A DNA stretch of 24,000 nucleotides from Alteromonadaceae bacterium (GTDB taxonomy: Bacteria > Pseudomonadota > Gammaproteobacteria > Enterobacterales > Alteromonadaceae): assembly GCA_964230195.1 (NCBI GenBank), contig CAXRGH010000135.1, positions 2,714-26,713 on the forward strand, read 5' to 3'. The notes beneath the pieces were generated by a model, which saw only the letters and a list, made by a program, of their open reading frames with translations, ran no database searches and was not told the DNA's origin. Below are positions 873 to 23,015 of the stretch, one piece after another; within the stretch, counting starts at the first letter, position 1; every line of letters starts with the position of its first letter. Both the position numbers and the translations under genes were made by a program.

Positions 873-902
873 GGCACATTGATGATTCATTTTCAATGTG
901 CC
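873..902. terminator. Hairpin between convergent genes; probable terminator, mainly for the minus-strand PPIase gene
   Basis: Perfect 10-bp inverted repeat: ggcacattga (873-882) and tcaatgtgcc (893-902), with a 10-nt loop. On the minus strand it is followed by acctttta (short T run). Confidence 0.4.
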
Positions 903-945
903 TAAGGCGACTACTATCAAATGCGCCTAATAATATCGGATTAAG

Positions 946-1722
946 CTACGGCTTTCTGCGCAACCATGGTAGTGCTAATAGAGAGCCAAATAACCAGAAC
1001 ATGCTACCACCGCCGCTCACGGAGTTCCCCCCTGGTGACTGGTTGTAGCGAGTGTTGGGAACTGACGCAAGATCAGTGTCGGTGACTACAGTGTCGTCAT
1101 ACACGGTAACTGAATAGACGGTGACAAAATTTTCTTGGCTAGGCACTGCCGATGTATCATCACAATAGTCACTGTAATTAATCATGGGGAGTTCCTGAAA
1201 CCCTGCATAAGGAGTTTCACAGCGTGCAACACCGGCAATGGCATCCACCACACCCATACCATCGTCAATGACCTCTCCAAACACGGCGTATGCACCGCCA
1301 CCATAAATATCGATTGGATCTAACGACGAAGCATTATTGGTTAAATTGATGAACCACTGACTCGTTGCACTGTTAATAGCCCCCCCTTGTTTCGCCATCG
1401 AAATGGTACCCCGGACATTAGAATAGACAGGCTCATTTTCAATTGGGTCGTTGGTAGCGATCCACGTTGGTGGCATTTGCCCTTCAAACTCAGCCCCGCC
1501 GCCCTGTATCACAAAGTTGTCCACCGTGCGGTGAATAATGGTGTTGTCGTAACGCCCTTCGTTCACATAAGTTAAAAAGTTATCCACGGTTTGTGGGGTG
1601 GTTTGATCATGTAAGTTGACTTTAAAGTTACCCTGTGACGTTTGAAATTCAACAATAGTGGCTTGGCTGATTGCGGAAAATAAGCTACCAGCAATCAATG
1701 CGGATAAAAGAGTGGGTTTCAT
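946..1722 (-). CDS. Secreted cyclophilin-type peptidyl-prolyl cis-trans isomerase with a C-terminal GlyGly-CTERM (rhombosortase) sorting signal
   Basis: Cyclophilin motifs: FHRTVDNFVIQGGG-like (IIHRTVDNFVIQGGG), GTISMAK, SQWFINL, YAVFGEV. N-terminal signal peptide MKPTLLSALIAGSLFSAISQA. C-terminus is SGGGSMFWLFGSLLALPWLRRKP (Gly run, hydrophobic helix, basic cluster). The ORF track start at 1743 is TTG; the ATG at 1722 begins the signal peptide. Confidence 0.85.
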   Translation of the reverse strand: MKPTLLSALIAGSLFSAISQATIVEFQTSQGNFKVNLHDQTTPQTVDNFLTYVNEGRYDNTIIHRTVDNFVIQGGGAEFEGQMPPTWIATNDPIENEPVYSNVRGTISMAKQGGAINSATSQWFINLTNNASSLDPIDIYGGGAYAVFGEVIDDGMGVVDAIAGVARCETPYAGFQELPMINYSDYCDDTSAVPSQENFVTVYSVTVYDDTVVTDTDLASVPNTRYNQSPGGNSVSGGGSMFWLFGSLLALPWLRRKP

Positions 1723-1968
1723 GTGAATGCTATCTCGTGTCAATGTTGTGATTTTGCATACTAGGGTGTTCGTTTCAAAATCTCAACAACTCAAGTGTTA
1801 TCAGTTGTAATCAAACATTGCGTGTAAGGTTACAAAAGCATGGTGATGACGCAAGTGTTAACCTCCATTTACATCAAAGAGCGCCTTATTTTATACATTT
1901 TATTGTCAGCTCTGTCTTACAGGATTACCTTGGAGTAACATTTCATTAACATGGCGTAGTATCGTTCA

Positions 1969-3966
1969 ATGCAAATCAGTACAGTAAAGACTCAAAGTCA
2001 GTTATTAATGGGTATTTTGCTTTTCTTTTCACTCTTAACCACGGCACTTTCCCATATCAACTTTTCACGGATTAACAAGTCAATCCATACCATTGTTGAT
2101 GAACACTTAGTGGGATTGGAAAAAGGTTACGCCCTTCAACATTCAACACAGACCCTGCTCAGTCTGCTTTTGCAAGCAAATTATGCAACTCAATCATCAG
2201 AAATCGATGATATCAAACAACAGTTTGACCAACTCACATCAGCGCTAAAACAAGACTCATCCCAATATCAGCCTCATACAGATAAAGAACTCAAACCGCG
2301 GATGTTCATGGAAGAAACATCAGAGGTTATCGCCCACAAACGTCAACAAATAGGACTCACTGAAGAAATAAATCAAGTCCGTGACAAACTGCTGATGGAA
2401 CTACAAGATGTGTCTATCGCACTTGAAGATCTCGATTACTTAGACCTGTCCAACCAATCCGTGGTTTCCGGAATCTCCGCCAACATTGATAATGGGCTAA
2501 CCCCATTTACCAAAATCAGTAGTGTAGTGGATACCGAGGCAGATTTTGCAACGATGAGGCAAGATCTAAACTTTGCTTACAGTGACGTCCAACAACAACT
2601 CAAGTTTCTAACGCGTTTGGTCGAGGGTAGTGAAGAGGCTGATGAGATAGCGCTGGAAATTTCGACACTCATGACGGATATTCAAAATGATGTTTCCACT
2701 CTGATTTCACTTGCTGTGAAGCGCAACCAGATCGCGCAACTTCAAAACTCAAGCCTCAATGCTGCAACCGACTACATATCCGAATTTGACCAGTTGATCA
2801 CCACGACACTCAAGCTCTTACAGACGCGAGTCAACCAGTCGAAGACTGTCGTTGTTGATACATCTGCAAACAGTAAAACCGCAAACATCGTTGCTCTTGC
2901 GGTAACCTTACTCATATTCAGTACTATTTTTTGGGTGCTGAATAAACGCGTGCTTCGGCCACTCACGACATTACAGGGTATCTTGAGGCGAGTCGCTTCG
3001 GGTGATTTGACTCAGCAATTTGACTCGAAAACAAAAAACGATGAGTTTTATCATTTAGCAGAGAACGTTAATCAAGTTGTGAATTCATTTCATACAGTGA
3101 TTAATGACATGCAACAAAGAGCAGCGAAACTACAAACTCAAAACCTGAGTGATATCCAACTTCGGGATGCCATGTCCTCCCAAGTGGAGAACCTCATCCA
3201 ATTCATGTCTGAACTGGATGACACACTTGTGACCATCAACGAAGGATGGCAAACCAATGGTAAATTGTTGACCGAAAACGAACACAAAGTCATGGCGTCA
3301 ATGGAAACCAGCCACGCCATTACAGACAGCATGAAAACTTGCATACAACAGTTGCAAACCCAACAACAAGCTACTCAAAATAGTGCTGACACTATTGACG
3401 AGCTAACACAAGATGCCAGTCGAGTGTCAGAGGTCGTGGCTATCATTAATGCGGTTGCTGAAAAAACCAACTTACTCGCCCTTAATGCCGCAATAGAATC
3501 AGCAAGAGCGGGCGAGCACGGCAGGGGATTTGCCGTTGTTGCAGATGAAGTACGAACTCTTGCGCAAACCACCCAAGAATCCACCGCACGAATAGAAGCG
3601 GTAATTAAGACTCTGATGGAAAACACCGAGCATGCCAAACACTTAATTCAATCTTCAACTATCCACGCTGTTGAGACAGTAAAAGCAATTGAATCTGTTA
3701 ACCAACAATTTGGTGTTATCAACCAGGCGAATCATGATTCAGTCGCGATAGTGAATCAAATTAAAGAAAGTAGACAACACCAATTGGCATTACTTAATAC
3801 TCTCAAAAAATCCGCAGACAATGCCTATGCCACCGGAAATCATGCGAAGCACGCAATCGAAGAAACTCGTGCATCAGTATTAGCCAACGATGAAATGACA
3901 AGCAAGATGAAACAAACAGTCGACAGATTTCATGTCAAACACTCTGCGGTCGCGAGCGACAGTTGA
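1969..3966 (+). CDS. Methyl-accepting chemotaxis protein (large helical periplasmic domain, TM2, HAMP, signalling domain)
   Basis: N-terminal TM segment, about 290-aa periplasmic region, second TM ([18 protein letters not shown]), HAMP ([22 protein letters not shown]), and the invariant MCP hairpin tip [31 protein letters not shown]. Confidence 0.9.
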
Positions 3967-6265: not shown

Positions 6266-7145
6266 CAGACAACTCGCTTAACAAGGTCAAATCAACTGAC
6301 TGACGATGCTTAATAACATGTCCTATTACAATAAGAACTGGGCCATCGAAGATGACACCTGAGATAGTGTCATCAATGGTATCAAGTGTCCCAACGATAA
6401 CTTTCTGCTGCAGCCCTGTTGCATGCTCAATTAATGAAATTGGTAACGACTGAGAAACACCTCGTTGCTTCAGTGCTCGAGTAAGGATTGGCAATCGTTG
6501 CAGTCCCATATATATAACTGCAGTTTCACTGAGAAGTTGCTCTGCCAACTGATCCCAATTCATTTGCTTATTCGCTTCTTTGAATCGTCCTGTCATCAAC
6601 TTTACGGCCCCAGCGCAATGCCGTTCAGTTAACGGGATACCAGTGAAAGCAGCAGCACCCGATGCTGCGGTAATACCGGGAATAATTGCATAGCGCACAC
6701 CACTGGCTTCCAATGCTTGGGTTTCTTCAACAGTACGTGCAAATAAACTCGGATCGCCGCCTTTAAGGCGCACAACTGTTTTGCCAGTTTTAGCAAACTG
6801 CACCAATAATCGACATATCTCTTCTTGAGGTACACTGTGGCGACCGTTCCGTTTGCCTACAAATACCAATTGGGCCCTCTCTGGCGCCAGAGTCAGAATG
6901 CGTTCATCGACCAACCAATCAAATAAAATAACGTCTGCTGATTGAATAGCTTTGACAGCCATTACTGTGAGCAGATCTGGATCTCCAGGACCCGCTCCTA
7001 CAATAAACACCTTATTCTCGCTCGTGATGGGCCCTTTGCAGTGTCTGTTGGATGTTGCAAGATTCAGAAATCGCCTCATCCACTTTGATGTTAGCTCGCC
7101 GGCTTTATTGCCTGTATCTCTCATATTTAGTCGAAGTACCGCCAT
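6249..7145 (-). CDS. cobA: Uroporphyrinogen-III C-methyltransferase (SUMT; siroheme branch, CysG C-domain/CobA type)
   Basis: VFIVGAGPGDPDLLTVMAVKAIQSADVILFD, VRLKGGDPSLFAR, IIPGITAASGAAAFTGIPLT and VIYMG are the tetrapyrrole methylase signatures. It sits directly downstream of nirBD, whose product needs siroheme. GGAG lies 9 nt upstream of the ATG. Confidence 0.88.
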   Translation of the reverse strand: MAVLRLNMRDTGNKAGELTSKWMRRFLNLATSNRHCKGPITSENKVFIVGAGPGDPDLLTVMAVKAIQSADVILFDWLVDERILTLAPERAQLVFVGKRNGRHSVPQEEICRLLVQFAKTGKTVVRLKGGDPSLFARTVEETQALEASGVRYAIIPGITAASGAAAFTGIPLTERHCAGAVKLMTGRFKEANKQMNWDQLAEQLLSETAVIYMGLQRLPILTRALKQRGVSQSLPISLIEHATGLQQKVIVGTLDTIDDTISGVIFDGPVLIVIGHVIKHRQSVDLTLLSELSDVVAV

Positions 7146-7160
7146 AACTCATCTCCGAAT

Positions 7161-7511
7161 TTAAATCTGTACCAACAAGCGATTATCTTCAATCTTCACA
7201 GGATAAGTTGAAAGCTTGTGCTCGGGTGATTCAAAGCATTCCCCCGTTAATAGCGAAAAGCGTTGCTTATAAAGAGGAGAGGCGATGACCGGTTCATCTC
7301 CAATCGACCCTATAATTCCACGGTAGATGACATTCGCTTTACCAACTGGATCCCAATTTGACGTTGCATAAAACGATGTTTCGCCAGCATTAGACACCCT
7401 ATAAATAGCCAGTTGCTGACCATTGACTAAGGCACAGACTGAGGTGTTAGGGGTTAGAGAATTAAGGTCGCAGATCGCATGCCAATCTGGGATGGAGTTC
7501 AATTTGCTCAT
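7161..7511 (-). CDS. nirD: NAD(P)H nitrite reductase small subunit (Rieske-like fold)
   Basis: 116 aa. Has WHAICDLNSLTPNTSVCALVNGQQLAIYRV...SPLYKQRFSLLTGEC, typical of NirD. Lies 15 nt downstream of nirB. Confidence 0.9.
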   Translation of the reverse strand: MSKLNSIPDWHAICDLNSLTPNTSVCALVNGQQLAIYRVSNAGETSFYATSNWDPVGKANVIYRGIIGSIGDEPVIASPLYKQRFSLLTGECFESPEHKLSTYPVKIEDNRLLVQI

Positions 7512-7526
7512 GTTTTTTCTCCAATA

Positions 7527-10058
7527 TTAAACGGTTTTGATATCGATCAATTGCATTCTTTCTATTTCCGACACGGGCTTTATTTGACCTCGCTCTTCAG
7601 TGAACTGTATGTGTGTGTCAATATCATCCGCATTAATGAACTGTTTGAATCGCAACATCTTCTCCGGCGATTCAATGGTTTTTTTCCACTCGCACTCATA
7701 AGCCCCAATCACTTGCTCCATTTGAGCTTCTAATTCATGATTGATACCTAAGCAGTCATTGATAATTACCTCTCTCAAGTAATCTAATCCGCCTTCAAGG
7801 TTATCCATCCAAACGGAGGTGCGTTGTAAACGACCCGCAGTTCGTATATAAAACATTAAAATTCGATCGATATAAGCAACCAATGTCTGGTCATCAAGAT
7901 CAGTCGCGAATAAGTCTGCATGCCTCGGTTTCATTCCGCCATTACCGCAAACGTAAAGATTCCAACCGTTTTCAGTTGCGATAACACCAATGTCTTTGCT
8001 TTGAGCTTCTGCGCATTCCCGAGTGCAGCCAGAAACCGCAAATTTTAGTTTATGAGGAGCACGTAACCCTTTGTATCGATTCTCAAGATGAATTGCTTGC
8101 CCGACTGAATCTTGCACACCATAACGACACCATGTACTTCCCACACAGGATTTCACGGTACGAACCGCTTTCGCGTAGGCATGCCCCGTTTCAAATCCAT
8201 TATCTAAAAGCTGTTTCCAGATTTCAGGCAATTGATCGACACGAGCGCCGAACAAATCAATACGTTGTCCTCCGGTAATTTTTGTATACAGGTTATAGGT
8301 CTTCGCAATACTGCCAATGGCGATGAGTTGTTCAGGCGTGATTTCCCCTCCGGCAATTCTGGGCACGACCGAATAGCTACCATCTTTCTGCATGTTTCCT
8401 AAATAGATATCGTTAGTATCTTGAAGCGGCAAATGCTCAGTTTTCAGTACGTATTCGTTCCAGATAGAAGCCAGAATAGATCCCACCGTCGGTTTACAAA
8501 TATCGCACCCTAAGCCTTTACCGTAGCGATCTAACAGTTCATCAAACGAACGAATGTCATTCACTTTAACCAGATGGAAAAGCTCCTGACGTGAATACTC
8601 AAAATGCTCACAAATGGCTTTAGATACTTCAATCCCTGACTTCTCTAGTTCGCTATCAACAACAGACTTCAGTAAAGCACTACAACCTCCACAACCGGTT
8701 CCTGCTTTGGTGCATGATTTAACGTCGGCAATATTGCATGCGCCACTACCAATAGCATTAATGATGTCGCCCTTCGACACGTTATGACAAGAACAAATCG
8801 TGCTACTATCTGGTAGTATGTCGTTGCCCATCGTTGGGGCGTCACTAGCGCTCGGTAAGATCAATGATTCAGGGGCATCACCGAGAGGGATTTGATTGAG
8901 GTGATATTGTAGTAAGGTATCATATTCGCTCGCATCTCCGACTAAAACCGCACCTATTACCCGTTGATGTGATTCGTCTACCACCAATTTTTTGTAAACG
9001 TCAGTGACTGAATTGGCATATACGTAACTTTTCGCGCCATCTGTTTTTCCGTGAGCATCACCGATCGATGCGACATCAACCCCGAGCAACTTAAGCTTGG
9101 TGCTCATATCAGCCCCTTCAAAAGGCTGTTTTTGACCGACCAAACGATTGGCTACCGTGCGGGCCATAGCATAACCTGGTGCCACCAATCCAAAGATTTG
9201 ATCATCCCAAGCAGCGCATTCGCCAATAGCATAAATGTCAGGCTCTGACGTCTCGCAATAATGATTGATGCTAATACCGCCGCGAGCACCAATGGATAAA
9301 TCGATCTGATCCGCTAGCTCATCGTGTGGACGTATACCTGCAGAGAAAACGATCATATCAGTCTCTAAGTGGGTACCGTCACTAAAATTCATGCGATATC
9401 GCGATGACTTTCCTTCAATAATCTCAGTGGTTGCCTTACCTGTATGAACACCAACACCAAGCTCTTCAATCTTCTTACGTAGAATGTCACCACCCATTTC
9501 ATCAACCTGAACCGACATTAATCGTGGAGCAAATTCTACAACATGAGTTTCAAGGTCGGCCTGTTTTAACGCATTAGCAGCTTCAAGCCCAAGAAGCCCT
9601 CCACCAAGAACAACTCCTTTCTCACTTTTCTCTGCTGATGACTTAATTTCATGTAAATCGTCGATAGTCCGATACGTCAAACAGTGAGGTTGGTCATTAC
9701 CTGGAATACTGGGAACAAAGGGATATGAACCGGTTGCGAATATCAGGACATCATATTCAAAGACATCACCGCTTTCAGTAATAACAACTTTGTTAGCTTT
9801 ATCAATGTTTTTCACCCAAGCACTAAGTCGATAGTCAATACCGTGTTCATCATAATACTCTGTTGTTGTCAGCGATAATGCACCTTCCGATGTTCCGTCA
9901 AAGAACGATGACAAGTGCACACGATCGTATGCCAAGCGCGATTCACCTGATAGCACAAGGATAGATGCGTTCAGCTCGGACTGAATAGCTTGCTCGATAA
10001 AATAATGACTCACCATGCCATTACCTATGATCACTATACGTTCTCGAGTTGTTACCAT
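7527..10058 (-). CDS. nirB: NAD(P)H-dependent assimilatory nitrite reductase large subunit (FAD/NAD, BFD-like 2Fe-2S, siroheme/4Fe-4S domains)
   Basis: N-terminal IVIIGNGMVSH dinucleotide fold. BFD-type CSCHNVSKGDI...CTKAGTGCGGC. Sulfite/nitrite reductase cluster motifs SCVGSTWCRYG and VSGCTRECAEAQSKD. 843 aa, as for NirB. AGGAG RBS. Confidence 0.95.
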   Translation of the reverse strand: MVTTRERIVIIGNGMVSHYFIEQAIQSELNASILVLSGESRLAYDRVHLSSFFDGTSEGALSLTTTEYYDEHGIDYRLSAWVKNIDKANKVVITESGDVFEYDVLIFATGSYPFVPSIPGNDQPHCLTYRTIDDLHEIKSSAEKSEKGVVLGGGLLGLEAANALKQADLETHVVEFAPRLMSVQVDEMGGDILRKKIEELGVGVHTGKATTEIIEGKSSRYRMNFSDGTHLETDMIVFSAGIRPHDELADQIDLSIGARGGISINHYCETSEPDIYAIGECAAWDDQIFGLVAPGYAMARTVANRLVGQKQPFEGADMSTKLKLLGVDVASIGDAHGKTDGAKSYVYANSVTDVYKKLVVDESHQRVIGAVLVGDASEYDTLLQYHLNQIPLGDAPESLILPSASDAPTMGNDILPDSSTICSCHNVSKGDIINAIGSGACNIADVKSCTKAGTGCGGCSALLKSVVDSELEKSGIEVSKAICEHFEYSRQELFHLVKVNDIRSFDELLDRYGKGLGCDICKPTVGSILASIWNEYVLKTEHLPLQDTNDIYLGNMQKDGSYSVVPRIAGGEITPEQLIAIGSIAKTYNLYTKITGGQRIDLFGARVDQLPEIWKQLLDNGFETGHAYAKAVRTVKSCVGSTWCRYGVQDSVGQAIHLENRYKGLRAPHKLKFAVSGCTRECAEAQSKDIGVIATENGWNLYVCGNGGMKPRHADLFATDLDDQTLVAYIDRILMFYIRTAGRLQRTSVWMDNLEGGLDYLREVIINDCLGINHELEAQMEQVIGAYECEWKKTIESPEKMLRFKQFINADDIDTHIQFTEERGQIKPVSEIERMQLIDIKTV

Positions 10059-10336: not shown

Positions 10337-12031
10337 TCATGGCGCCAGATAATATTGAATGATAATGATCGCAAACAGAACCCCTGATATTAGCTGCCAA
10401 AATACCACTGGGTTACGCTGTAATAAAGGAGGGCGTCTACGTTCAGTATATTTAACATTTGGGTGTCGAAGGTCATAAAGGAACTCAGAAATTTCTTGGT
10501 ATCGGTTATCAGGGCTAACCTTAAGTGCGCAACGTAATGTATCGTCTATCCAAAGAGGTATATCTCGTTGAGAGTCTAATACGCTTCGATATGAGAGCCT
10601 ATTTTGAGCTGATATAGTACGAGCTTTGGCAACATCCGTTCCATAAGGATGACGGTCAGACAACATTTGATAACAGACCGCTGCAAGCGAGTATAAATCA
10701 GACACTGGCCGTGGAAAATCACCGATAAAATATTCAGGTGCAGCATAAATAGCCGTTCCTGGTATAGCTCCCTGACTTTGATATCCTATTCCAGCCGCGC
10801 CAAAAATATGTACAGAACCCAAATCAATTAATTTGATATTACCATCGTTTGTCAGTAATACATTTGCTGGACGAATGTCTTGATGTAATAACGAGCTTCG
10901 ATGAATGGCTTGTAATCCTTTCCCCATTTCCTCTGTTACATATCGAATCATCTCGATTTGACGTTCAGGATTGTCCATCAACCATTGGGCTAATGTTTGC
11001 CCTTCTATATATTCAATTAAGATATAGGCCTTGCTTGGTGTCGTTGGTAGATGAGCCCGAACAACATGTCTGGAGGTTATTCTTCTCAAGGCCCATTGCT
11101 CCATTCCGAGTTGTTCAAAGGCGACAGGGTCGTCGGCACACTCTAAACTCAAGCATTTTAAAGCAAATAATGATTCGGCTTTATCCTTTACCAAATACAC
11201 ATGGCTTCTTGGGCTTTGATACAAGCTCCGTATTACTTGAAGTCCATCGACTTTCTCACCTTCATTTAATGGTGCTGGTGTTAATAATTTCTCCGGCTCA
11301 TGTTGGGTGCGTTCACTCAGGCCATCGATTCGAATGACTTGTAACGTTAAGTTATCGGTAGCGCCAAATTGCAACGCCTTATCCATCCATTGGCTCAGTG
11401 TGTGATCGTCGTTAAAGAATACTGCATTATCATAGTCATTGATTATCAATGTCTCGATAATATCGGACAGACCATCGGTTAGTAGTAGCAAGACATCGTC
11501 AGATTCCAACTGATGAGTACTATACCGTAAGGGCTTGATATCGGGCATTCCCAAACCTGCAGATAAGTAATATTGGCCGGCTTCAGTTGCCACTTCATCA
11601 TCCTCAGTTAAAAGGGTTAACTGTTTGTTTCGTAATAAATAAGCTTGGGAATCGCCGATATCAAAAAGGTGACAGATATTATCCTTAATAACAGCCCCAG
11701 TGAAGGTACAGACGTAGCCCTTGTCAAGATTTAAATGGAGGTCACGAGATTTAGAATTAGTATATAAATTGTTGTTTATAAGCGACAATAATTGGCGACA
11801 ACTCTTTTCGGTCGACCAAATATCCGGCGTAAGATAATACTCTTTTATAAATTGCTGAGTTGCATAGTGGCTTGCTGCACCACTTACCGAGCTTGAACTT
11901 ATTCCGTCAGCAATTGCGAAGGCAAATCCCTTAGTTTTTGTATGAGCCTCAGTATCAATATATGCGGCGCATGCGTCCTGATTAGTTGATTTTATGCCAG
12001 CTATTGATGTTGATACAAAAGAAATATTCAT
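10337..12031 (-). CDS. Bifunctional PP2C-type Ser/Thr phosphatase / Hanks-type Ser/Thr protein kinase with a C-terminal TM anchor
   Basis: N-terminal PPM motifs (NQDA, FAIADGISSS, FDIGDSQAYLL, LLLTDGLSD, DNLTLQVIRI). Kinase motifs: FALKC (VAIK-like Lys), HQDIRPANVLL (catalytic loop, non-RD), IDLGS (DFG-like), APEY. C-terminal hydrophobic helix VVFWQLISGVLFAIIIIQYYL. Confidence 0.88.
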   Translation of the reverse strand: MNISFVSTSIAGIKSTNQDACAAYIDTEAHTKTKGFAFAIADGISSSSVSGAASHYATQQFIKEYYLTPDIWSTEKSCRQLLSLINNNLYTNSKSRDLHLNLDKGYVCTFTGAVIKDNICHLFDIGDSQAYLLRNKQLTLLTEDDEVATEAGQYYLSAGLGMPDIKPLRYSTHQLESDDVLLLLTDGLSDIIETLIINDYDNAVFFNDDHTLSQWMDKALQFGATDNLTLQVIRIDGLSERTQHEPEKLLTPAPLNEGEKVDGLQVIRSLYQSPRSHVYLVKDKAESLFALKCLSLECADDPVAFEQLGMEQWALRRITSRHVVRAHLPTTPSKAYILIEYIEGQTLAQWLMDNPERQIEMIRYVTEEMGKGLQAIHRSSLLHQDIRPANVLLTNDGNIKLIDLGSVHIFGAAGIGYQSQGAIPGTAIYAAPEYFIGDFPRPVSDLYSLAAVCYQMLSDRHPYGTDVAKARTISAQNRLSYRSVLDSQRDIPLWIDDTLRCALKVSPDNRYQEISEFLYDLRHPNVKYTERRRPPLLQRNPVVFWQLISGVLFAIIIIQYYLAP

Positions 12032-16269: not shown

Positions 16270-16354
16270 TGAATGAAACAAGTTTGATGTGAGTCTGACA
16301 CTTGGGTGTCCATACTTGACGGTTGAGAATCAATTGTTCAGGAGGAACTACCCA

Positions 16355-17077
16355 ATGGATCATGAAGAGAAGTTACTCGAATTTTTATACGTTGCCCCAG
16401 TCGCCCTTATTCAATTTGATGGTAGCGGCAATGTCACCTTAGCTAACCCGAGAGTTGCTCAACTGTTCAACCGCTACGCACCGGGAGGCTACTTTGCTAA
16501 TTTCCTAACTTTCCTTGATGACGTGTTGCCCGAGTTGAAAAAGGATATTGTGAATTTTCCTCATAAAGGTGGTCAGATCATGGAGAATAAGCGAGTCTGC
16601 TTGCAAGCACCTTCACAACTCGCGCAAGAAGAATTGTGGATGGACGTTACCGTCATGAAACAAGATGATGAGCGCTATATTGCATCCCTCAACAACGTGA
16701 CCGACCAAGTAGTTGCAGAAAACGAGCGTTATGTGTCAGAGCAATATCTCACCCAGCTGTTAGAAAAAGTAAACAAACATGTTGCTTTCACCCTCGACCC
16801 CAACGGCATTATCAACAGCTGGAACATTACAGGTGAAACCTATATTACCGATAGTCCTTATGCACTCGGGAAAGTGCTGTCACAGCTATTCCCCATCAGT
16901 AACCAAGATAACTCATTGATACTTGCACAAGCGAAAGAAATGGGGCAACACAAAACCACAATCCAATTTGCAGACAAAAGTGGGGAGTCACACGCTTCTT
17001 GCTTATATGTCTCAGGAATACATGACCAAAGAGATAAGTTTCAAGGCTTTTCGGTCGTGTTAACGCTGGGCGAATAG
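16355..17077 (+). CDS. Output-less tandem PAS-domain protein; first gene of the PYP cluster
   Basis: Two PAS-like cores: VAPVALIQFDGSGNVTLANPRVAQLF... and HVAFTLDPNGIINSWNITGETYIT...GKVLSQLFP. No effector domain. The ATG at 16355 is preceded by AGGAGG at 9 nt; the track start at 16289 is GTG. Confidence 0.65.
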   Translation: MDHEEKLLEFLYVAPVALIQFDGSGNVTLANPRVAQLFNRYAPGGYFANFLTFLDDVLPELKKDIVNFPHKGGQIMENKRVCLQAPSQLAQEELWMDVTVMKQDDERYIASLNNVTDQVVAENERYVSEQYLTQLLEKVNKHVAFTLDPNGIINSWNITGETYITDSPYALGKVLSQLFPISNQDNSLILAQAKEMGQHKTTIQFADKSGESHASCLYVSGIHDQRDKFQGFSVVLTLGE

Positions 17078-17106: not shown

Positions 17107-17454
17107 ATGAATTTTGACTCAACCAATATCCGCGAATTGCACTCGGGAGCTTCTCAGTTTAATGCGGCAAACTTTGGCATTGTTAAGATGGATCACGATG
17201 GCAATGTCACTGATTACAATAGTAGCCAAGAACGGTTTACCGGTATGTCTAAAGCATCGGTGATGGGAAAGCACTTCTTTTCTCTAGTTGCACCTTGTAC
17301 CAACAACTTCATGGTTGCTCAGAAATATGACAACCAGTCGTCATTAGATGAGAAGGTGCCGTATACCTTCACATTAAAGATGACGCCAACCCCCGTTACA
17401 TTGCGCTTACTCAAAGACAGCAGCGCCCAATATTTGCTGTGTGATTGGTCGTAA
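17107..17454 (+). CDS. pyp: Photoactive yellow protein (PYP) homologue, stand-alone 115 aa
   Basis: Collinear with H. halophila PYP from memory. [24 protein letters not shown] aligns with [38 protein letters not shown] aligns with [26 protein letters not shown] aligns with YTFDYQMTPTKV. Chromophore Cys (C64=C69), Tyr42 and Thr50 equivalents are present. Position 46 is Gln and position 52 is Met. GGAGAG RBS. Confidence 0.8.
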   Translation: [115 protein letters not shown]

Positions 17455-17464
17455 TATCGCAATC

Positions 17465-17490
17465 ATAAGAAGGGGCTATCCCCTTCTTAT
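17465..17490 (+). other. Perfect 11-bp stem-loop between pyp and the transducer gene (RNA stabiliser / partial terminator candidate)
   Basis: ataagaagggg-ctat-ccccttcttat, starting 10 nt after the pyp stop. No U tract follows. The next RBS (caggagaga) comes immediately after. Confidence 0.5.
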
Positions 17491-17505
17491 ACTCAGGAGA
17501 GACCT

Positions 17506-18672
17506 ATGTGGAAAAGGATTTTTACAGGTACAAGCGCCGTATTGGCGTTAGCGTTGTCAGTGGCAGGTTTGTTTTTCCAAGTAAAACAAGATGCCGCTGG
17601 GTTGAGTTGGATCTACGGCTTGAGCAGTTTGCTTCTGATAACGTCAATCGCTGCCGTCTGGTTGTTTTACGGCAAGCCGCTATTCAACATCATTCAGCAA
17701 ATCCCCAGCCATGGTCTAGATGATACCTCTGATGATGTCTCTCACCTCAATCAAGGACTCAATCGACTTCAGAGCCAAATGCTGTCGGCCCAGCAACTTT
17801 GTCATCAAAAGCAGCAACAGCTCGATGCATTAACTCAAGCAATCGCTGTGCTAAAGCTCGAATTAGATGACCCCACGGCTTCGCAAACTAACACCAATAA
17901 ACAGGATCAACAGTCTATTCAAGACGCTTTTACGCAATCCGAAAATGCCGCGGATTATGCCACTGAGACGTTTGAAACCTTATATCACTCAGTCAACACA
18001 CTTGGCACTAGCTATCAAGACGTTCGAAAAAGTGCCGAAAAGCTGAACAATAATGCCAATGAGAGTGCAGAGATGGTCAATACCTCTCGCGCCTCGTTAG
18101 AACAATTATCCATGCAAGTATCAGAGATTGCAGCCGTCACCAACAGTATTGCTGATATTGCGAGTATGACACAGCTACTGGCACTAAATGCTTCCATTGA
18201 AGCGGCTCGTGCAGGTGAGTCGGGGAGAGGTTTTGCGGTCGTTGCTGATGAAGTGAAAAAACTCGCTGAACAAACCGATGAAGCCACTAAGCGTATCACC
18301 TCAATATCGCAAAGTATCTCAACCGCAAGTCAAGCGTCATCTGATGCAATGACCACCATTGCTGACCGCATGATCAGTGTGAGGGAAACTCTCACTGAGG
18401 TGGTATCCCACATTGAAACCCAATGGTCCAGCGTCCAAGGCGTTTTAGGACAAATGGGGCAAGCAGCTGGCACTGTCAGCGGCCTTAAAGGGATTCTTAA
18501 TACATCTAAAGAGACGGCGTTAATGCCATTCCTTGATACTACCGCGAGTCAAGACACACGCCATTATTTTCACTCCATTGATTCCGTATTAGCAGAGTTT
18601 AGTATCCCTCTAGAAGTCAAAGATACAGAAGCAAACCCATCAGAGTATGACCACTCAGAGCTTTCCGTTTGA
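17506..18672 (+). CDS. MCP-type transducer with a TM hairpin and no periplasmic sensor domain
   Basis: Two N-terminal TM helices ([17 protein letters not shown] and [23 protein letters not shown]) are separated by only about 6 residues. The cytoplasmic coiled coil carries the MCP tip [34 protein letters not shown]. 388 aa. Confidence 0.85.
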
Positions 18673-18695
18673 AGCCAACTACAAGTGAGCCTGTT

Positions 18696-19502
18696 ATGTT
18701 AGATGCACCTATTCCATTTTCTTTGCCGCCCCAAGAGTCAATTAAGGCGCAATCTCCTCAACTTGTTTTAGATGGCAAAAGCTTATCCATAGAACAAGTG
18801 ACTCAATTCATCAAAAAACAACATCACGTGTCCCTGTGCAAGCGAGCGGCTTCACCTGATGCATTGCAAGTGAGTTGTGATGTGATGGCGCAACAACTGA
18901 ATGACGGCAAGCAAATCTACGGGGTCAACACCTTGTTTGGAGGGCTTGCTAACTTAGGGGTCGATGATCCTATTGCGCTGCAGCAAGAACTCATCACATC
19001 TCACCATTCGGGCGCGGGAAATGACCTCGCCATTGACGATGTTAGAGTAGCCATGTTATTGCGGGTGAATTCCATTTGTCCACTGTTAGAGCAAAAAGCA
19101 TCACCATTGAGTGTCCACTTCCCCGTGCACGCTGAACAATTTAATCAAAATCTGAACTCTCAAGGTTTCGGTTCAGCGCAGTTAACGCAATCCGCTGGGC
19201 ATTTGTTAAAAACACATTTGGCAGCCAGTTTGATAATCTATCTACAAGCCGCTTATATTCGGGCAGATCAAAAACACTTATCCATTGACTCCGCGTTTAG
19301 CCCTTCCACTCGTCGACTAATTCGGGTATTTTGTGAACTTAACGGGTTGTCACTCACCGACAATTGGGCAGTACTGTCAGGTGTTCGCAACGAGCTGAAA
19401 CAAGCGTTTGTGGCTAATGTTGAACACGGCATTGACACATTCGCATTTGAATTCACGCAGGATGCGGTATCTTCTGCTCAAACGGATGAAAATGATTTAT
19501 GA
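18696..19502 (+). CDS. Aromatic amino-acid ammonia-lyase (HAL/TAL/PAL family) homologue, internally truncated and lacking the MIO-forming Ala-Ser-Gly core; possibly a pseudogene
   Basis: IYGVNTLFGGLANLGV...LQQELITSHHSGAGNDLAIDDVRVAMLLRVNS matches the lyase N-terminal signature (YG[IV]NTGFG...LQ.NL..SHA.G.G..L....VR..M..R.NS). The protein is only about 268 aa against about 500-520, and no GxxGASGDL motif is present. The tail (LAASLIIYLQAAYIR...LTDNWAVLSGVRNELKQAF) weakly resembles the family C-terminus. The ATG at 18696 is preferred over the TTG at 18669. The stop overlaps the kinase start (ATGA). Confidence 0.6.
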   Translation: MLDAPIPFSLPPQESIKAQSPQLVLDGKSLSIEQVTQFIKKQHHVSLCKRAASPDALQVSCDVMAQQLNDGKQIYGVNTLFGGLANLGVDDPIALQQELITSHHSGAGNDLAIDDVRVAMLLRVNSICPLLEQKASPLSVHFPVHAEQFNQNLNSQGFGSAQLTQSAGHLLKTHLAASLIIYLQAAYIRADQKHLSIDSAFSPSTRRLIRVFCELNGLSLTDNWAVLSGVRNELKQAFVANVEHGIDTFAFEFTQDAVSSAQTDENDL

Positions 19503-21757
19503 CGACACTTGCCTCGCTATTGACTCAACAAGGTACACCCATTGAGTTGTCATACGACACAGATGGACTCAAGAACGCTGAAAATAACCAATCCATTCGC
19601 TTCATGGATGATGTCATTAGTCGTCGCATTCGCTATACCCGAAATTGGTGTCAAAAACATCAAAAAACTCATTCCTTTGACCATGCCTTTTTTCCCGAGG
19701 AGACAGGGCACAAGACGTTGTTGTATCGGCGAGTAACACTGGATCCTGATGGCCTCAAGATCAGTCCATTTCTAGCTCAAGAAGGTTATGTATTTAGCGA
19801 CGCATTTGAATCTCAAATTATTAATGCCTGTAACGACGCGGTATTACTCTGTGAGGCTGAGCCGATTGCCAGCCCAGGCCCTCGCATTATTTACTGTAAT
19901 AAAGCATACGAAACAATGACCGGTTACTCAGCAGCGGAAATGCTGGGAAATACACCACGTATTTTGCAAGGTGAGCAGTCATCGAAATTAGCCATTAAAA
20001 ACATCGCTATTGCACTACGAAAATGGCAGCCCATCAAACAACATATCGTTAATTATCGTAAAAATGGCGATGCTTTTTGGGTTGAATTAAATATTTCGCC
20101 GGTTACTGACGAAACAGGATGGTACTCCCATTGGATTTCCATTCAGCGGGATCTATCAATGGAAATAACCCACCAGCAGCATCAGTATCACATGCAAAGA
20201 ATGATGGAACGCAGTGGAGTGGGTACGTGGATTTATGATGGCCAAAAAGAACAGTTTAATTTTGACTGTAATGGTCTCGCATTACTCAATCTCGATACCG
20301 CTCAACACTGCGTTGCCTTGAGCGCTGTCACAGAACAACTCACTAAGCATCACTCATGTGATTTGAAAGCAAAGTTAGACGAAGCCTTAAACAGTGTATC
20401 CGGTTTAGAAATCGTGCTAGCCATGGGTGATGATCCAACAAAATATTTTCAGTTCAAAGGTGAGCGTTATTTTGATGTCACCCAACAGCACGCGACGTTA
20501 TCGGGTATCATGTTGGATATTACCAAAGAAAAACAGACGCAACTTGCTTTACAAGAACAGCGCGAGGCGATGATTGAAAACGGTAAACTTGCCGCCCTTG
20601 GTCGACTTGCTGCTGGTGTCGCCCATGAAATTAACAACCCACTGTCAGTCATCAATGTCATGTTAGATATTCTGGATATCAAATTACCTGCGGGCGATAT
20701 CAACTATCTGCAAGAGCAGCAGTTCTCGACAAAGCTTCGTGATGCGTCTGAGCGAATCGAACAGATAGTGTCGAGTTTATCCGACATTTCAAAAGCAAAT
20801 CGTAAGCGGGATACGGCGGTATCAGTCAATGTCACACGAGTAACCACAGAAACACTAGCACTGTTTCATCAGCTTTATCAGGCAGATGGGATTCAGATCA
20901 TTGATATTATTCCCAACCAACCTGCTTATGTTATGGCGCCACCCGGCACAATCCAACAGGTCATTGTTAATCTCTTAAATAATGCAAGAGACGCAGTTTC
21001 AGGAAACACCAGTAAGCGCATCAGTGTCACCGTTGAGATACTATCAACACACGTCGTGTTGCATGTAAAAGACAATGGAGAAGGGGTACCAGAGGCGATC
21101 CAGAAAACGTTATACGAACCTTTCGTCACAACGAAACCACCTGGCAAAGGCACTGGGTTAGGGTTATCAATTGTGCATGGGTTGATATCATCCTTGGGCG
21201 GAAAAATCACCTGCCATTCCGCTGATGTCGGCGCTTATTTTAGTGTTTCACTGCCTTTATGCGAGAGCATCGCAAGTGCATGTGCAGGTCCACAAGGTAT
21301 GACAACGATAGGGAACAATCAAAATTCAACTGCATTGCTTACCGCTTCTGGGAGCACAGTGTCATGCCTAGTGGTTGACGACAATCAACAACTTGCTCAG
21401 TCACTATCATCGTTACTGACGTTGTTAGGTTGTGATACCTGCATAGCTGAGAGTGGTGAGTCTGCGATTCATTTACTTAAAAAGCAGTCGTTTGATCTCA
21501 TTTTGACGGATATCAAAATGCCATCAATGGACGGTTGGGCCCTACTGGATATTATCCATAGAGAAAACCTTGCACCTGACAGCTTGTGCTATGTCATTTC
21601 AAGTCTCGGTAATAATGGGTTAAAAGCGCCATCTGTAGACTCAACTCGAGTTAACGGTATTTTGCCTAAACCGGTAAGTCGTACCGAGCTCATCGGTATT
21701 ATTGACGCGGTGAAAGAAAATCGACAACAGCAACAAACACTGCAAACAATATCCTAA
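19499..21757 (+). CDS. Hybrid sensor histidine kinase: unknown N-terminal region, LOV-like PAS (Cys replaced by Pro), second PAS, HisKA, HATPase_c, receiver
   Basis: LOV-like segment: PRIIYCNKAYETMTGYSAAEMLGNTPRILQGE...IVNYRKNGDAFWVELNISPVTDETG..ISIQRD. H-box AAGVAHEINNPL, N-box LLNNARDA, G1 DNGEGV, G2 GKGTGLGLSIV. Receiver: VVDDNQ...DLILTDIKMPSMDG...PKP. Confidence 0.88.
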   Translation: MTTLASLLTQQGTPIELSYDTDGLKNAENNQSIRFMDDVISRRIRYTRNWCQKHQKTHSFDHAFFPEETGHKTLLYRRVTLDPDGLKISPFLAQEGYVFSDAFESQIINACNDAVLLCEAEPIASPGPRIIYCNKAYETMTGYSAAEMLGNTPRILQGEQSSKLAIKNIAIALRKWQPIKQHIVNYRKNGDAFWVELNISPVTDETGWYSHWISIQRDLSMEITHQQHQYHMQRMMERSGVGTWIYDGQKEQFNFDCNGLALLNLDTAQHCVALSAVTEQLTKHHSCDLKAKLDEALNSVSGLEIVLAMGDDPTKYFQFKGERYFDVTQQHATLSGIMLDITKEKQTQLALQEQREAMIENGKLAALGRLAAGVAHEINNPLSVINVMLDILDIKLPAGDINYLQEQQFSTKLRDASERIEQIVSSLSDISKANRKRDTAVSVNVTRVTTETLALFHQLYQADGIQIIDIIPNQPAYVMAPPGTIQQVIVNLLNNARDAVSGNTSKRISVTVEILSTHVVLHVKDNGEGVPEAIQKTLYEPFVTTKPPGKGTGLGLSIVHGLISSLGGKITCHSADVGAYFSVSLPLCESIASACAGPQGMTTIGNNQNSTALLTASGSTVSCLVVDDNQQLAQSLSSLLTLLGCDTCIAESGESAIHLLKKQSFDLILTDIKMPSMDGWALLDIIHRENLAPDSLCYVISSLGNNGLKAPSVDSTRVNGILPKPVSRTELIGIIDAVKENRQQQQTLQTIS

Positions 21758-21832: not shown

Positions 21833-22549
21833 ATGAAAATACTGTTAGCAGAAGACGACCCTCAACTTGGCCCCATCATTGCCGACTACCTCAATCTCCA
21901 CGATTTTGAGGTCACTCATGTTGACTGCGGCAAAGACGCCATGAACGCGTTGGCGGAAACCTCCTTTGATGCCATTGTGCTTGATCTCACACTACCGGAT
22001 GAAGATGGTCTAGTGATTTTGCGTAAGATTAGACAGTGGCTTGAGACTCCCGTGCTGATTTGCTCCGCAAGAGGGACCGATAATGATCGAATTACCGGCC
22101 TAGAATTCGGTGCTCGCGACTACTTAACCAAACCCTTCGCGTCAAAAGAATTGGTGTTGCGACTGCGCAATCTTGTCAACGGCGTGAGCCAATCTCACAA
22201 TAAGCCTGCCCAAGATATTGAGTTTGGTCCCTTCCGCCTCGATCAACAGAAAAAACAACTGATTAATACTCAAATAGACAGTAGTATTCCCTTGACGCCA
22301 AAAGAATACGGGTTGCTTCTCATTATGGGACGTCGTCCCGGTCATGTGTTTTCCCGTAGTGATCTTATTGATGGCCTTCCACAACTTGAAGGTCCAGAAA
22401 CCTTACGTGCAATTGACATACTGATCAGCCGACTTCGACGGAAAATTGAAACGGATGCAAGGGCGCCTCAATACATCAAAACCGTCACTGGATTTGGCTA
22501 TAAACTCAGCACTCACAACTGCCTATCTACTGCAATAGACGACGCCTAG
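21833..22549 (+). CDS. OmpR/PhoB-family response regulator (receiver + winged-helix DNA-binding domain)
   Basis: MKILLAEDDPQL, DAIVLDLTLPDEDG, and KPF in the receiver. C-terminal LTPKEYGLLLIM...SRLRRKIE...IKTVTGFGYKL. The ATG at 21833 has AAGGA upstream; the track start at 21815 is less likely. Confidence 0.9.
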   Translation: MKILLAEDDPQLGPIIADYLNLHDFEVTHVDCGKDAMNALAETSFDAIVLDLTLPDEDGLVILRKIRQWLETPVLICSARGTDNDRITGLEFGARDYLTKPFASKELVLRLRNLVNGVSQSHNKPAQDIEFGPFRLDQQKKQLINTQIDSSIPLTPKEYGLLLIMGRRPGHVFSRSDLIDGLPQLEGPETLRAIDILISRLRRKIETDARAPQYIKTVTGFGYKLSTHNCLSTAIDDA

Positions 22550-22553
22550 CGGC

Positions 22554-22868
22554 TTACCAATCGCCCACTTTTCCCATACTGTTAGCGGGTATCTTGTCAC
22601 CAAGCACAACATGACTGAAAGAGACGTGAGGGCAATCCTGTTTCAGTTGTGACTGAAAAGCTTCCATATCAAACTGGGTATGCAATGTAGGGACGACGAA
22701 CAAATGTAGCTCAGAGAGTCCAGACTGCTCAAAGACTTTTACTGCACAATCAGACACGGTGGACAAACCCAACACTTGGCCTTTAACCTCAGACAGTGAT
22801 ACGTTCTTTCCATTAATCTGAATCTTTTTATCATTTTGCGCTAAACATTTTATGTTATTGAAGTGTAG
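22554..22868 (-). pseudogene. 3' remnant of an adenylate-forming enzyme gene (acyl/4-coumarate-CoA ligase-like C-terminal domain only)
   Basis: Open frame from the stop at 22869: ...LAQNDKKIQINGKNVSLSEVKGQVLGLSTVSDCAVKVFEQSG..LHLFVVPT...FQSQLKQDCPHVSFSHVVLGDKIPANSMGKVGDW. This matches motifs A8-A10 (GR.DD.IKI.G..V.L.E[IV]E..L......D.AV......G....FVV....IP....GK). The approximately 400-aa N-terminal adenylation domain is absent. A possible further fragment (FHGDELMLKR, out of frame) lies near 22915-22975. Confidence 0.6.
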
Positions 22869-23015
22869 TTAATTTTTGCTATTTTTCCACCTTGATACAG
22901 CAAGCAAACAGAGAACATTTACGTTGGATATGGCATTTTGATAGCCCATCTTTTAAGCATTAATTCGTCGCCATGAAAAGGTCAATTAACACATGCTTCC
23001 AGCTTCTAAAGCGCT

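Follow-up and report, generated by a model that had tools for sequence, protein, structure and literature searches.

The DNA analyzed here (hereafter the window) is a stretch of 24,000 nt from an Alteromonadaceae bacterium (GenBank assembly GCA_964230195.1, contig CAXRGH010000135.1), and it contains a gene cluster for photoactive yellow protein (PYP). The order of the cluster in the window is a PAS-domain protein, PYP, an MCP (methyl-accepting chemotaxis protein), an aromatic ammonia-lyase, a hybrid kinase, a response regulator and pCL (4-coumarate-CoA ligase), and the genes from the PAS-domain protein to the response regulator are co-directional with short gaps between them. The subject of this study is the lyase gene, which is present as an internally deleted open reading frame (ORF). 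The features of this ORF, for which AvPAL numbering refers to the cyanobacterial phenylalanine ammonia-lyase (PAL) and L082 and L165 are contigs of a closely related lineage, are:

18696..19502, plus strand: internally deleted aromatic ammonia-lyase ORF of 268 aa, from the ATG at 18696 to the TGA at 19502
18696..19072, plus strand: retained N-terminal lyase block, residues 1–126 (AvPAL 23–131), from alignments to AvPAL and to the Alteromonas and Glaciecola orthologues
19066..19072, plus strand: lyase deletion junction, at which one copy of a 7-bp direct repeat (TGAATTC) is left; of the two copies present in the related lineage, the left one is seen in L082 and the right one in L165
19073..19499, plus strand: retained C-terminal lyase block, residues 127–268 (AvPAL ~423–523 and tail), from alignments to PALs and L165
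19499..19502, plus strand: stop of the lyase overlapping the start of the kinase as ATGA, from the sequence and from the L165 genes at 1–891 and 888–3146

An alternative TTG start at 18669 would give a lyase product of 277 aa, nine residues longer. We noticed that this TTG overlaps the MCP stop as TTGA (18669–18672), which is a second possible translational coupling in the cluster and would apply to the 277-aa product.

The short lyase matched the Pfam profile Lyase_aromatic (PF00221) with an E-value of 1.9e-23 and 83 bits, compared to a cut-off of 27.3, and its best stretch covered positions 1–99 of the 466 profile positions. The N-terminal signature of ammonia-lyases that had been reported for this ORF in an earlier note on the same DNA is confirmed, as IYGVNTLFGGLA, SHHSGAG and VRVAMLLRVNS are all present. 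The best solved relatives are the cyanobacterial PALs 2nyf, 2nyn, 3czo and 5ltm (E 1e-27 to 3e-29). Alignments to 2nyf, 2nyn and 3czo fall into two blocks, in which residues 29–135 of the query correspond to PAL residues 23–131 and residues 129–231 to PAL residues 419–523, and either block alone is significant against the solved PALs (independent E 1e-11 to 1e-14). Coverage of the fold, which consists of about 500 residues with an MIO (4-methylideneimidazole-5-one) domain and a helical core, is therefore incomplete and limited to profile positions 1–99 and the C-terminal ~100 positions. The tail of the short protein, which the earlier note had regarded as only loosely family-like, proved to be clearly homologous: against 2nyf the C-terminal block is the better-scoring of the two (57 bits), and it includes the highly conserved HAEQFNQNLNSQGFGSA. 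Between this block and the C-terminus of the full-length L165 allele, identity is 98%.

The 268-aa product contains no Ala-Ser-Gly sequence (the MIO triad), and in the alignment the equivalent of AvPAL residues ~132–422 is missing. Full-length profile coverage was seen in neither the Pfam nor the PDB alignment, which bears out the proposed absence of the MIO region, and the position proposed for the loss of homology, around nt 19076, fits the actual break at 19066–19072. The number of missing residues is larger than the ~250 previously suggested, as the spacing between the two junction Asn-Ser dipeptides shows that 296 residues are missing relative to five of six full-length homologues (297 relative to the sixth). 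In common with the PALs of Anabaena variabilis (AvPAL) and Nostoc punctiforme (2nyn, 2nyf, 3czo and 5ltm), the window protein retains HAEQFNQN and the catalytic-loop Tyr (Tyr78 of AvPAL, Tyr53 of histidine ammonia-lyase, HAL), its IYGVNTLFGG aligning with PIYGVTSGFGG of AvPAL. Without MIO, this Tyr has no function. All NCBIfam equivalogs scored far under their cut-offs (e.g., 78 bits against 519 for PAL), and a single-sequence AlphaFold2 model of the 268-aa product had a mean confidence (pLDDT) of 38.6, too low for the model to be informative. Given that the MIO triad and most of the helical core are removed, what is known of the family implies that the product cannot be an ammonia-lyase; it should be inactive and is probably unstable. 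It should be filed as a PF00221 homologue without the defining catalytic feature, i.e., as a remnant and not as an enzyme. No second lyase homologue was found within the 24-kb window.

The full-length allele of this gene was found in a near-identical lineage. Clean short-read contigs, which were reached via the regulator protein, belong to two lineages: lineage A (L163 and L164), 99.9% identical to the window, and lineage B (L165 and L166), ~99.0% identical to it. Over 3769 nt, L165 differs from the window by 35 substitutions and no indel (99.07% identity). L165 starts inside the segment that is missing from the window; its positions 1–454 are the last 454 nt of that segment, in frame, with a translation that includes LIQDRYSIRC, EMNSVTDNP, HGGNFLGQ and PLQILMNS, and it rejoins the window at 19066. 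The segment is also carried by L082, a 3.3-kb contig that is rich in indel errors and was reached through a 62-aa fragment, 92% identical to the short lyase, in an exhaustive HMMER search. To the left and to the right of the junction, L082 is collinear with the window (L082 1–1824 with window 17144–19072, and L082 2662–3294 with window 19067–19714), and between these stretches it carries an insert of ~837 nt that encodes the missing middle of the lyase, including GSIGASGDLIP. It shares five of six diagnostic single-nucleotide polymorphisms with L165 and therefore belongs to lineage B, for which the data sets SRR5052267, SRR5052281 and ERZ28548094 are on record. Thus, as expected for a null allele, an intact allele (L165 and L082) is found at the same position of a near-identical genome, and the breakpoints can be mapped.

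The left copy of the repeat in L082 reads GGGTGAATTCGTT and the right copy in L165 reads GATGAATTCCATT, while the window reads GGGTGAATTCCATT across the junction; the junction sequence of the short allele, without the insert, is GGGTGAATTCCATTTG. The two TGAATTC copies encode Asn-Ser of ...LLRVNS... and of ...LQILMNS..., respectively. A deleted length of ~888 nt (296 codons), a whole number of codons, fits the homologue spacing of 296 codons, the preserved frame, and the combination of 408 noisy nt from L082 with 454 clean nt from L165. At a random break, junction homology of 7 bp has a probability of 5e-4 by the rough estimate (k+1)/4^k. Such homology is rare by chance, which points to replication slippage or microhomology-mediated joining, and the ~888 nt between the two TGAATTC copies were probably lost by one of these routes. 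Like other pseudogenes that arose by deletion between short direct repeats, the short lyase has one 7-bp copy left, an intact allele in a close relative and no further decay. It is the same kind of event, and what is unusual here is that the deletion is in frame, that the downstream coupling is kept and that the partner enzyme is deleted too.

The ORF had been described previously as uninterrupted, with a stop that overlaps the kinase start as ATGA, and this is what is seen at 19499–19502. The same 4-nt overlap is seen in L165, where the kinase gene begins at 888 and the full-length lyase frame runs to 891. Given that the overlap is present beside the full-length allele, it is ancestral and older than the deletion. 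As the deletion removed whole codons, the frame, the stop and the ATGA overlap all survive, and ribosomes would still reach the kinase start. The in-frame outcome may be luck, with a chance of one in three, or frameshifts may have been counter-selected for their polar effect on the kinase. The ~0.9% divergence since the lineages split left no time for secondary lesions, and the remnant would be too young to carry further damage.

The lyase is not the only damaged gene of the cluster. At its far end, pCL is also truncated by a deletion:

22557..22850, minus strand: pCL remnant, the last ~93 codons, from tblastn, the L165 alignment and a TIGR02372 hit
22834..22835, no strand: pCL deletion junction, with 880 nt missing relative to L165 and no microhomology, from base-level comparison; common to L163 and L164

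The remnant matched residues 288–384 of the Alteromonas pCL (tblastn E 1e-11) and is 90% identical to residues 280–380 of the L165 pCL. With the 880-nt deletion, pCL lost its ribosome-binding site, its start codon and codons 1–287; accordingly, the remnant has neither a start codon nor a ribosome-binding site, and an in-frame stop lies just upstream at 22871–22869. A word-index search with the remnant returned no match. In L165 and L166, pCL is intact (380 aa), with TIGR02372 as its best NCBIfam match (E 1.5e-55, under the equivalog cut-off), the family of the 4-coumarate-CoA ligase of PYP activation. The window, in contrast, does not contain the intact pCL of a PYP-supply cluster. With lyase and pCL both deleted, both locally encoded steps of chromophore supply, from tyrosine to p-coumarate and from p-coumarate to p-coumaroyl-CoA, are broken. 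The pCL deletion is a separate event in the same lineage, and the photoreceptor and signalling genes are untouched. Unlike the lyase deletion, it is independently confirmed in other assemblies.

The other genes of the cluster in the window are:

16289..17077, plus strand: PAS-domain protein, upstream of pyp in all relatives (domain scan, synteny)
17107..17454, plus strand: PYP, 115 aa, intact (TIGR02373 E 3.9e-17, under the equivalog cut-off; orthologues)
17506..18672, plus strand: MCP, intact (domain scan, synteny)
19499..21757, plus strand: PAS-histidine kinase-receiver hybrid, 752 aa, intact, with its start coupled to the lyase (domain scan, L165)
21833..22549, plus strand: OmpR-type response regulator, convergent with the pCL remnant (domain scan, relatives)

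The PYP of the window has the chromophore-binding Cys69 (VAPCTN). It has Gln at the position of the proton donor Glu46 and lacks Arg52 (..DYNSSQERFTGM..), as do the orthologues of Glaciecola and Alteromonas. In a survey of 984 PYPs, Gln46 was found in 2.6%, none of which has been characterized (PMC12826048). Genome scans identified the same cluster in Glaciecola sp. UBA2563 (L002), Alteromonas sp. LOR (L003) and A. hispanica (L004), where pyp is located at 7020–7367, 8117–8464 and 7005–7352, respectively, and where a pCL of 385–420 aa lies beside the regulator. The pair formed by the regulator (plus strand) and pCL (minus strand) is found downstream of the kinase in the window (21833–22850) and in L165, whereas in Alteromonas and Glaciecola it is found upstream of the PAS gene (L002 4155–6245, L003 5287–7196, L004 4181–6085). 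The pyp cluster is thus circularly permuted between the window and L165 on the one hand and Alteromonas and Glaciecola on the other. Scans of the window for promoters and terminators returned as many candidates as in shuffled sequence.

Two observations were made on the surroundings of these clusters, in both cases with domains judged by eye. In Glaciecola, the kinase is directly followed by a gene for a protein with BLUF-like and EAL-like domains (L002 12704–13894, minus strand); such a protein would add another blue-light sensor to PYP. In the window, a 564-aa ORF (10337–12031, minus strand) that adjoins nirBD and formate/nitrite-transporter genes appears to be a fusion of an N-terminus resembling PP2C-type phosphatases and a domain resembling Ser/Thr protein kinases, with a C-terminal membrane anchor.

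The lyase of the cluster had been interpreted as an internally deleted tal, the tyrosine ammonia-lyase (TAL) gene of the PYP chromophore pathway. That it is a deleted lyase of a pyp cluster is supported by our analyses, while the name tal is based on gene context and is at odds with the residues at the selectivity switch. In the alignment to 2nyn, the switch pair of the short lyase is Ser-His (LITSHHSGAG, 18984–19010), as it is in the orthologues, instead of Phe107-Leu108 of AvPAL. We take Ser-His to be HAL-like, and the pair equivalent to Phe107-Leu108 in TAL to be His-Leu (His89-Leu90 of the Rhodobacter enzyme), which is not found in the window lyase. The lyases of these clusters keep the PAL-like NQN in HAEQFNQN. 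The similarity of the window lyase to Rhodobacter TAL (2o6y) is marginal (E ~1), and the full-length Alteromonas lyase reaches none of the NCBIfam cut-offs for PAL (349 of 519), HAL (308 of 539) or FlxA TAL (296 of 700). Judged from its sequence context, namely its linkage to pyp and pCL, the ancestral gene may be called tal, but the conversion of tyrosine by its product is only putative. The pyp-pcl-tal operon of Halorhodospira halophila follows the same logic, in which a lyase and a CoA ligase beside pyp supply and activate the p-coumarate chromophore (PMC12826048); the cluster in the window differs from it by another gene order, by additional signalling genes and by the fact that both biosynthetic genes are broken. 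Among the pyp operons predicted in the same survey, 32% have pCL and only 5% have TAL (PMC12826048).

The short form of the lyase was not found elsewhere. The exhaustive HMMER search with the short lyase covered 1.84 billion protein representatives and gave 738 hits, among which no other protein had the same junction, and the window protein was the only one with a single stretch of alignment from end to end. The remaining hits are led by full-length proteins (554–569 aa) aligned in two parts, and short entries further down match a single block only. In scans of genome and metagenome contigs, the best matches were 38–59% identical, and all the loci inspected had full-length genes. Two contigs, L028 and L049, were considered as further short forms and rejected, as their single matching segment was a spurious tblastn extension and their proteins are full-length (568 and 552 aa, respectively) with Ala-Ser-Gly. 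A word-index protein search with the short lyase returned the lyase itself and P0002, and look-ups of the exact products returned no second record of the 268-aa or the 277-aa lyase, the MCP or the kinase.

P0002 (226 aa; L001 913–1593) is encoded by a metagenome-assembled genome (GCA_975251455) and is a PAL homologue with an internal deletion of its own, in which the MIO region is missing. Its junction (..PVYGV|LQIWGNSIMPL..) resumes five residues upstream of the point where the window protein resumes. P0002 was tried as a relative in a family of short forms and rejected, given its other N-terminal breakpoint (after PVYGV), its identity of 28% and its unrelated gene context without pyp. It is an independent event and forms no family with the short lyase.

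Comparison with the loci of relatives, which the earlier note had proposed, revealed a full-length, Ala-Ser-Gly-bearing lyase in Alteromonas, in Glaciecola and in the ~99% identical lineage B. The neighbours of these lyases are the same as in the window; the syntenic proteins contain GSIGASGDL and have 556 aa in Glaciecola sp. UBA2563 (L002 8753–10423) and 557 aa in Alteromonas sp. LOR (L003 9857–11530) and A. hispanica (L004), and the L165 frame is open through the deleted region. The retained blocks of the window are 38–58% identical to these three lyases. The N- and C-terminal blocks have identities of 45 and 38% between window and Glaciecola and of 43 and 51% between window and Alteromonas, compared to 43 and 41% between Glaciecola and Alteromonas, so that the blocks of the window are not accelerated. 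The retained blocks have thus diverged no more than the orthologues have from one another, which argues for ordinary constraint until very recently.

Taken together, these results make it probable (roughly 0.85) that the short ORF is a strain-level and very recent loss-of-function allele of the lyase, which arose by an in-frame deletion of the slippage type and is part of the loss of PYP chromophore synthesis. The strain is probably no longer able to synthesize the pigment of its blue-light sensor. Of the two alternatives raised earlier, a recent in-frame deletion is therefore favoured: the deleted segment is kept in a ~99% identical lineage, the short form is unique and the coupling is inherited. 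The other one, in which the short protein would have been domesticated as a non-catalytic scaffold or regulator and kept for a new role of its N- and C-terminal blocks in the PYP signalling cluster, could draw on the uninterrupted, translationally coupled ORF and on P0002 as another internally deleted PAL homologue in an unrelated genome. It is highly improbable, however, as the short form occurs in one lineage only while the ~99% identical sister lineage and the orthologous clusters of other genera all have full-length lyases, with Ala-Ser-Gly in the latter; moreover, the coupling predates the deletion, P0002 differs in junction and gene context, and from knowledge of the family the deletion takes the greater part of the helical core, on which the cohesion of the fold depends. 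Several points weigh against the reading of a recent loss-of-function allele. The left junction and the exact length are derived from one error-rich contig (L082) and from homologue spacing. Only the assembly that contains the window shows the deletion allele, and no second one was found that spans the lyase junction. The C-terminal block differs from L165 by three substitutions (one synonymous and two non-synonymous), which are too few to gauge selection after the deletion. As far as sequence can tell, the 268-aa product may have a residual or new role, and PYP could be kept supplied by another lyase or ligase encoded outside the window.

The second of these points is also what would be seen if the junction were an artefact of assembly or consensus and the gene were full-length in the actual genome, given that no other contig on record spans the junction in lineage A. 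Such an artefact is very unlikely, as a 7-bp repeat is far below the k-mer sizes of assemblers and cannot lead to the collapse of 888 nt, the junction itself is clean and keeps the frame, and the pCL deletion of the same assembly is matched base for base in two independent Logan assemblies (L163 and L164). Excision at two GAATTC (EcoRI-type) sites followed by religation, either in vivo or in a deliberate in vitro mutant, would give exactly the junction observed, with GAATTC at both ends of the segment; nevertheless we regard it as extremely improbable. With TGAATTC, the two ends have 7 bp in common, one base beyond GAATTC, as direct-repeat slippage predicts, and a GAATTC site at 19449 in the same gene is untouched. 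Because the window shows no depletion of GAATTC (6 sites observed vs. 8.4 expected) and none is found at the pCL deletion, the EcoRI site at the junction is best seen as a coincidence. A laboratory construct is made less likely by the origin of the related contigs, which were obtained in several unrelated sequencing runs. A different question is whether the losses were adaptive, i.e., whether the strain was selected to stop making holo-PYP and the in-frame lyase deletion was itself selected because it preserved the coupling to the kinase. This explanation invokes the same deletion mechanism as the reading of recent loss and differs from it on the selective cause alone, which might be that light signalling or p-coumarate synthesis is costly or that apo-PYP locks the MCP/kinase pathway in a useful way. 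Consistent with it are two independent deletions of ~0.88 kb that strike exactly both chromophore-supply genes while no other indel separates the window from L165 in the 3.8 kb compared, the intact genes for kinase, regulator, PYP and MCP, and an ATGA overlap that makes a polar effect of a frameshift plausible. Once one gene of the pathway is gone, however, the other becomes neutral and can be expected to go without any selection; the prior for staying in frame is one in three, and pCL was lost by an out-of-frame deletion, for which no such constraint was needed. An adaptive loss is thus possible but rather doubtful. That the deletions are a selected switch to a light-blind pathway, either constitutive or re-tasked (e.g., driven by apo-PYP), or that the 268-aa remnant acquired a role, is quite unlikely.

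The recent loss-of-function allele is ordinary gene decay caught early and not a new kind of system. It shows gene loss near its onset, in lineages that are ~1% apart in the flanks, one with a complete PYP cluster and the other with both supply enzymes deleted. For annotation it is a warning that an intact, translationally coupled ORF with a strong Pfam match can still be a dead remnant. If the deletions were indeed a selected switch, a blue-light pathway would have been turned light-blind while its kinase is still translated. For the poorly understood Gln46-type PYP clusters of the Alteromonadaceae, the two lineages are a natural matched pair, which bears on whether PYP signalling is dispensable and on whether the lyase and ligase beside pyp truly supply the chromophore.

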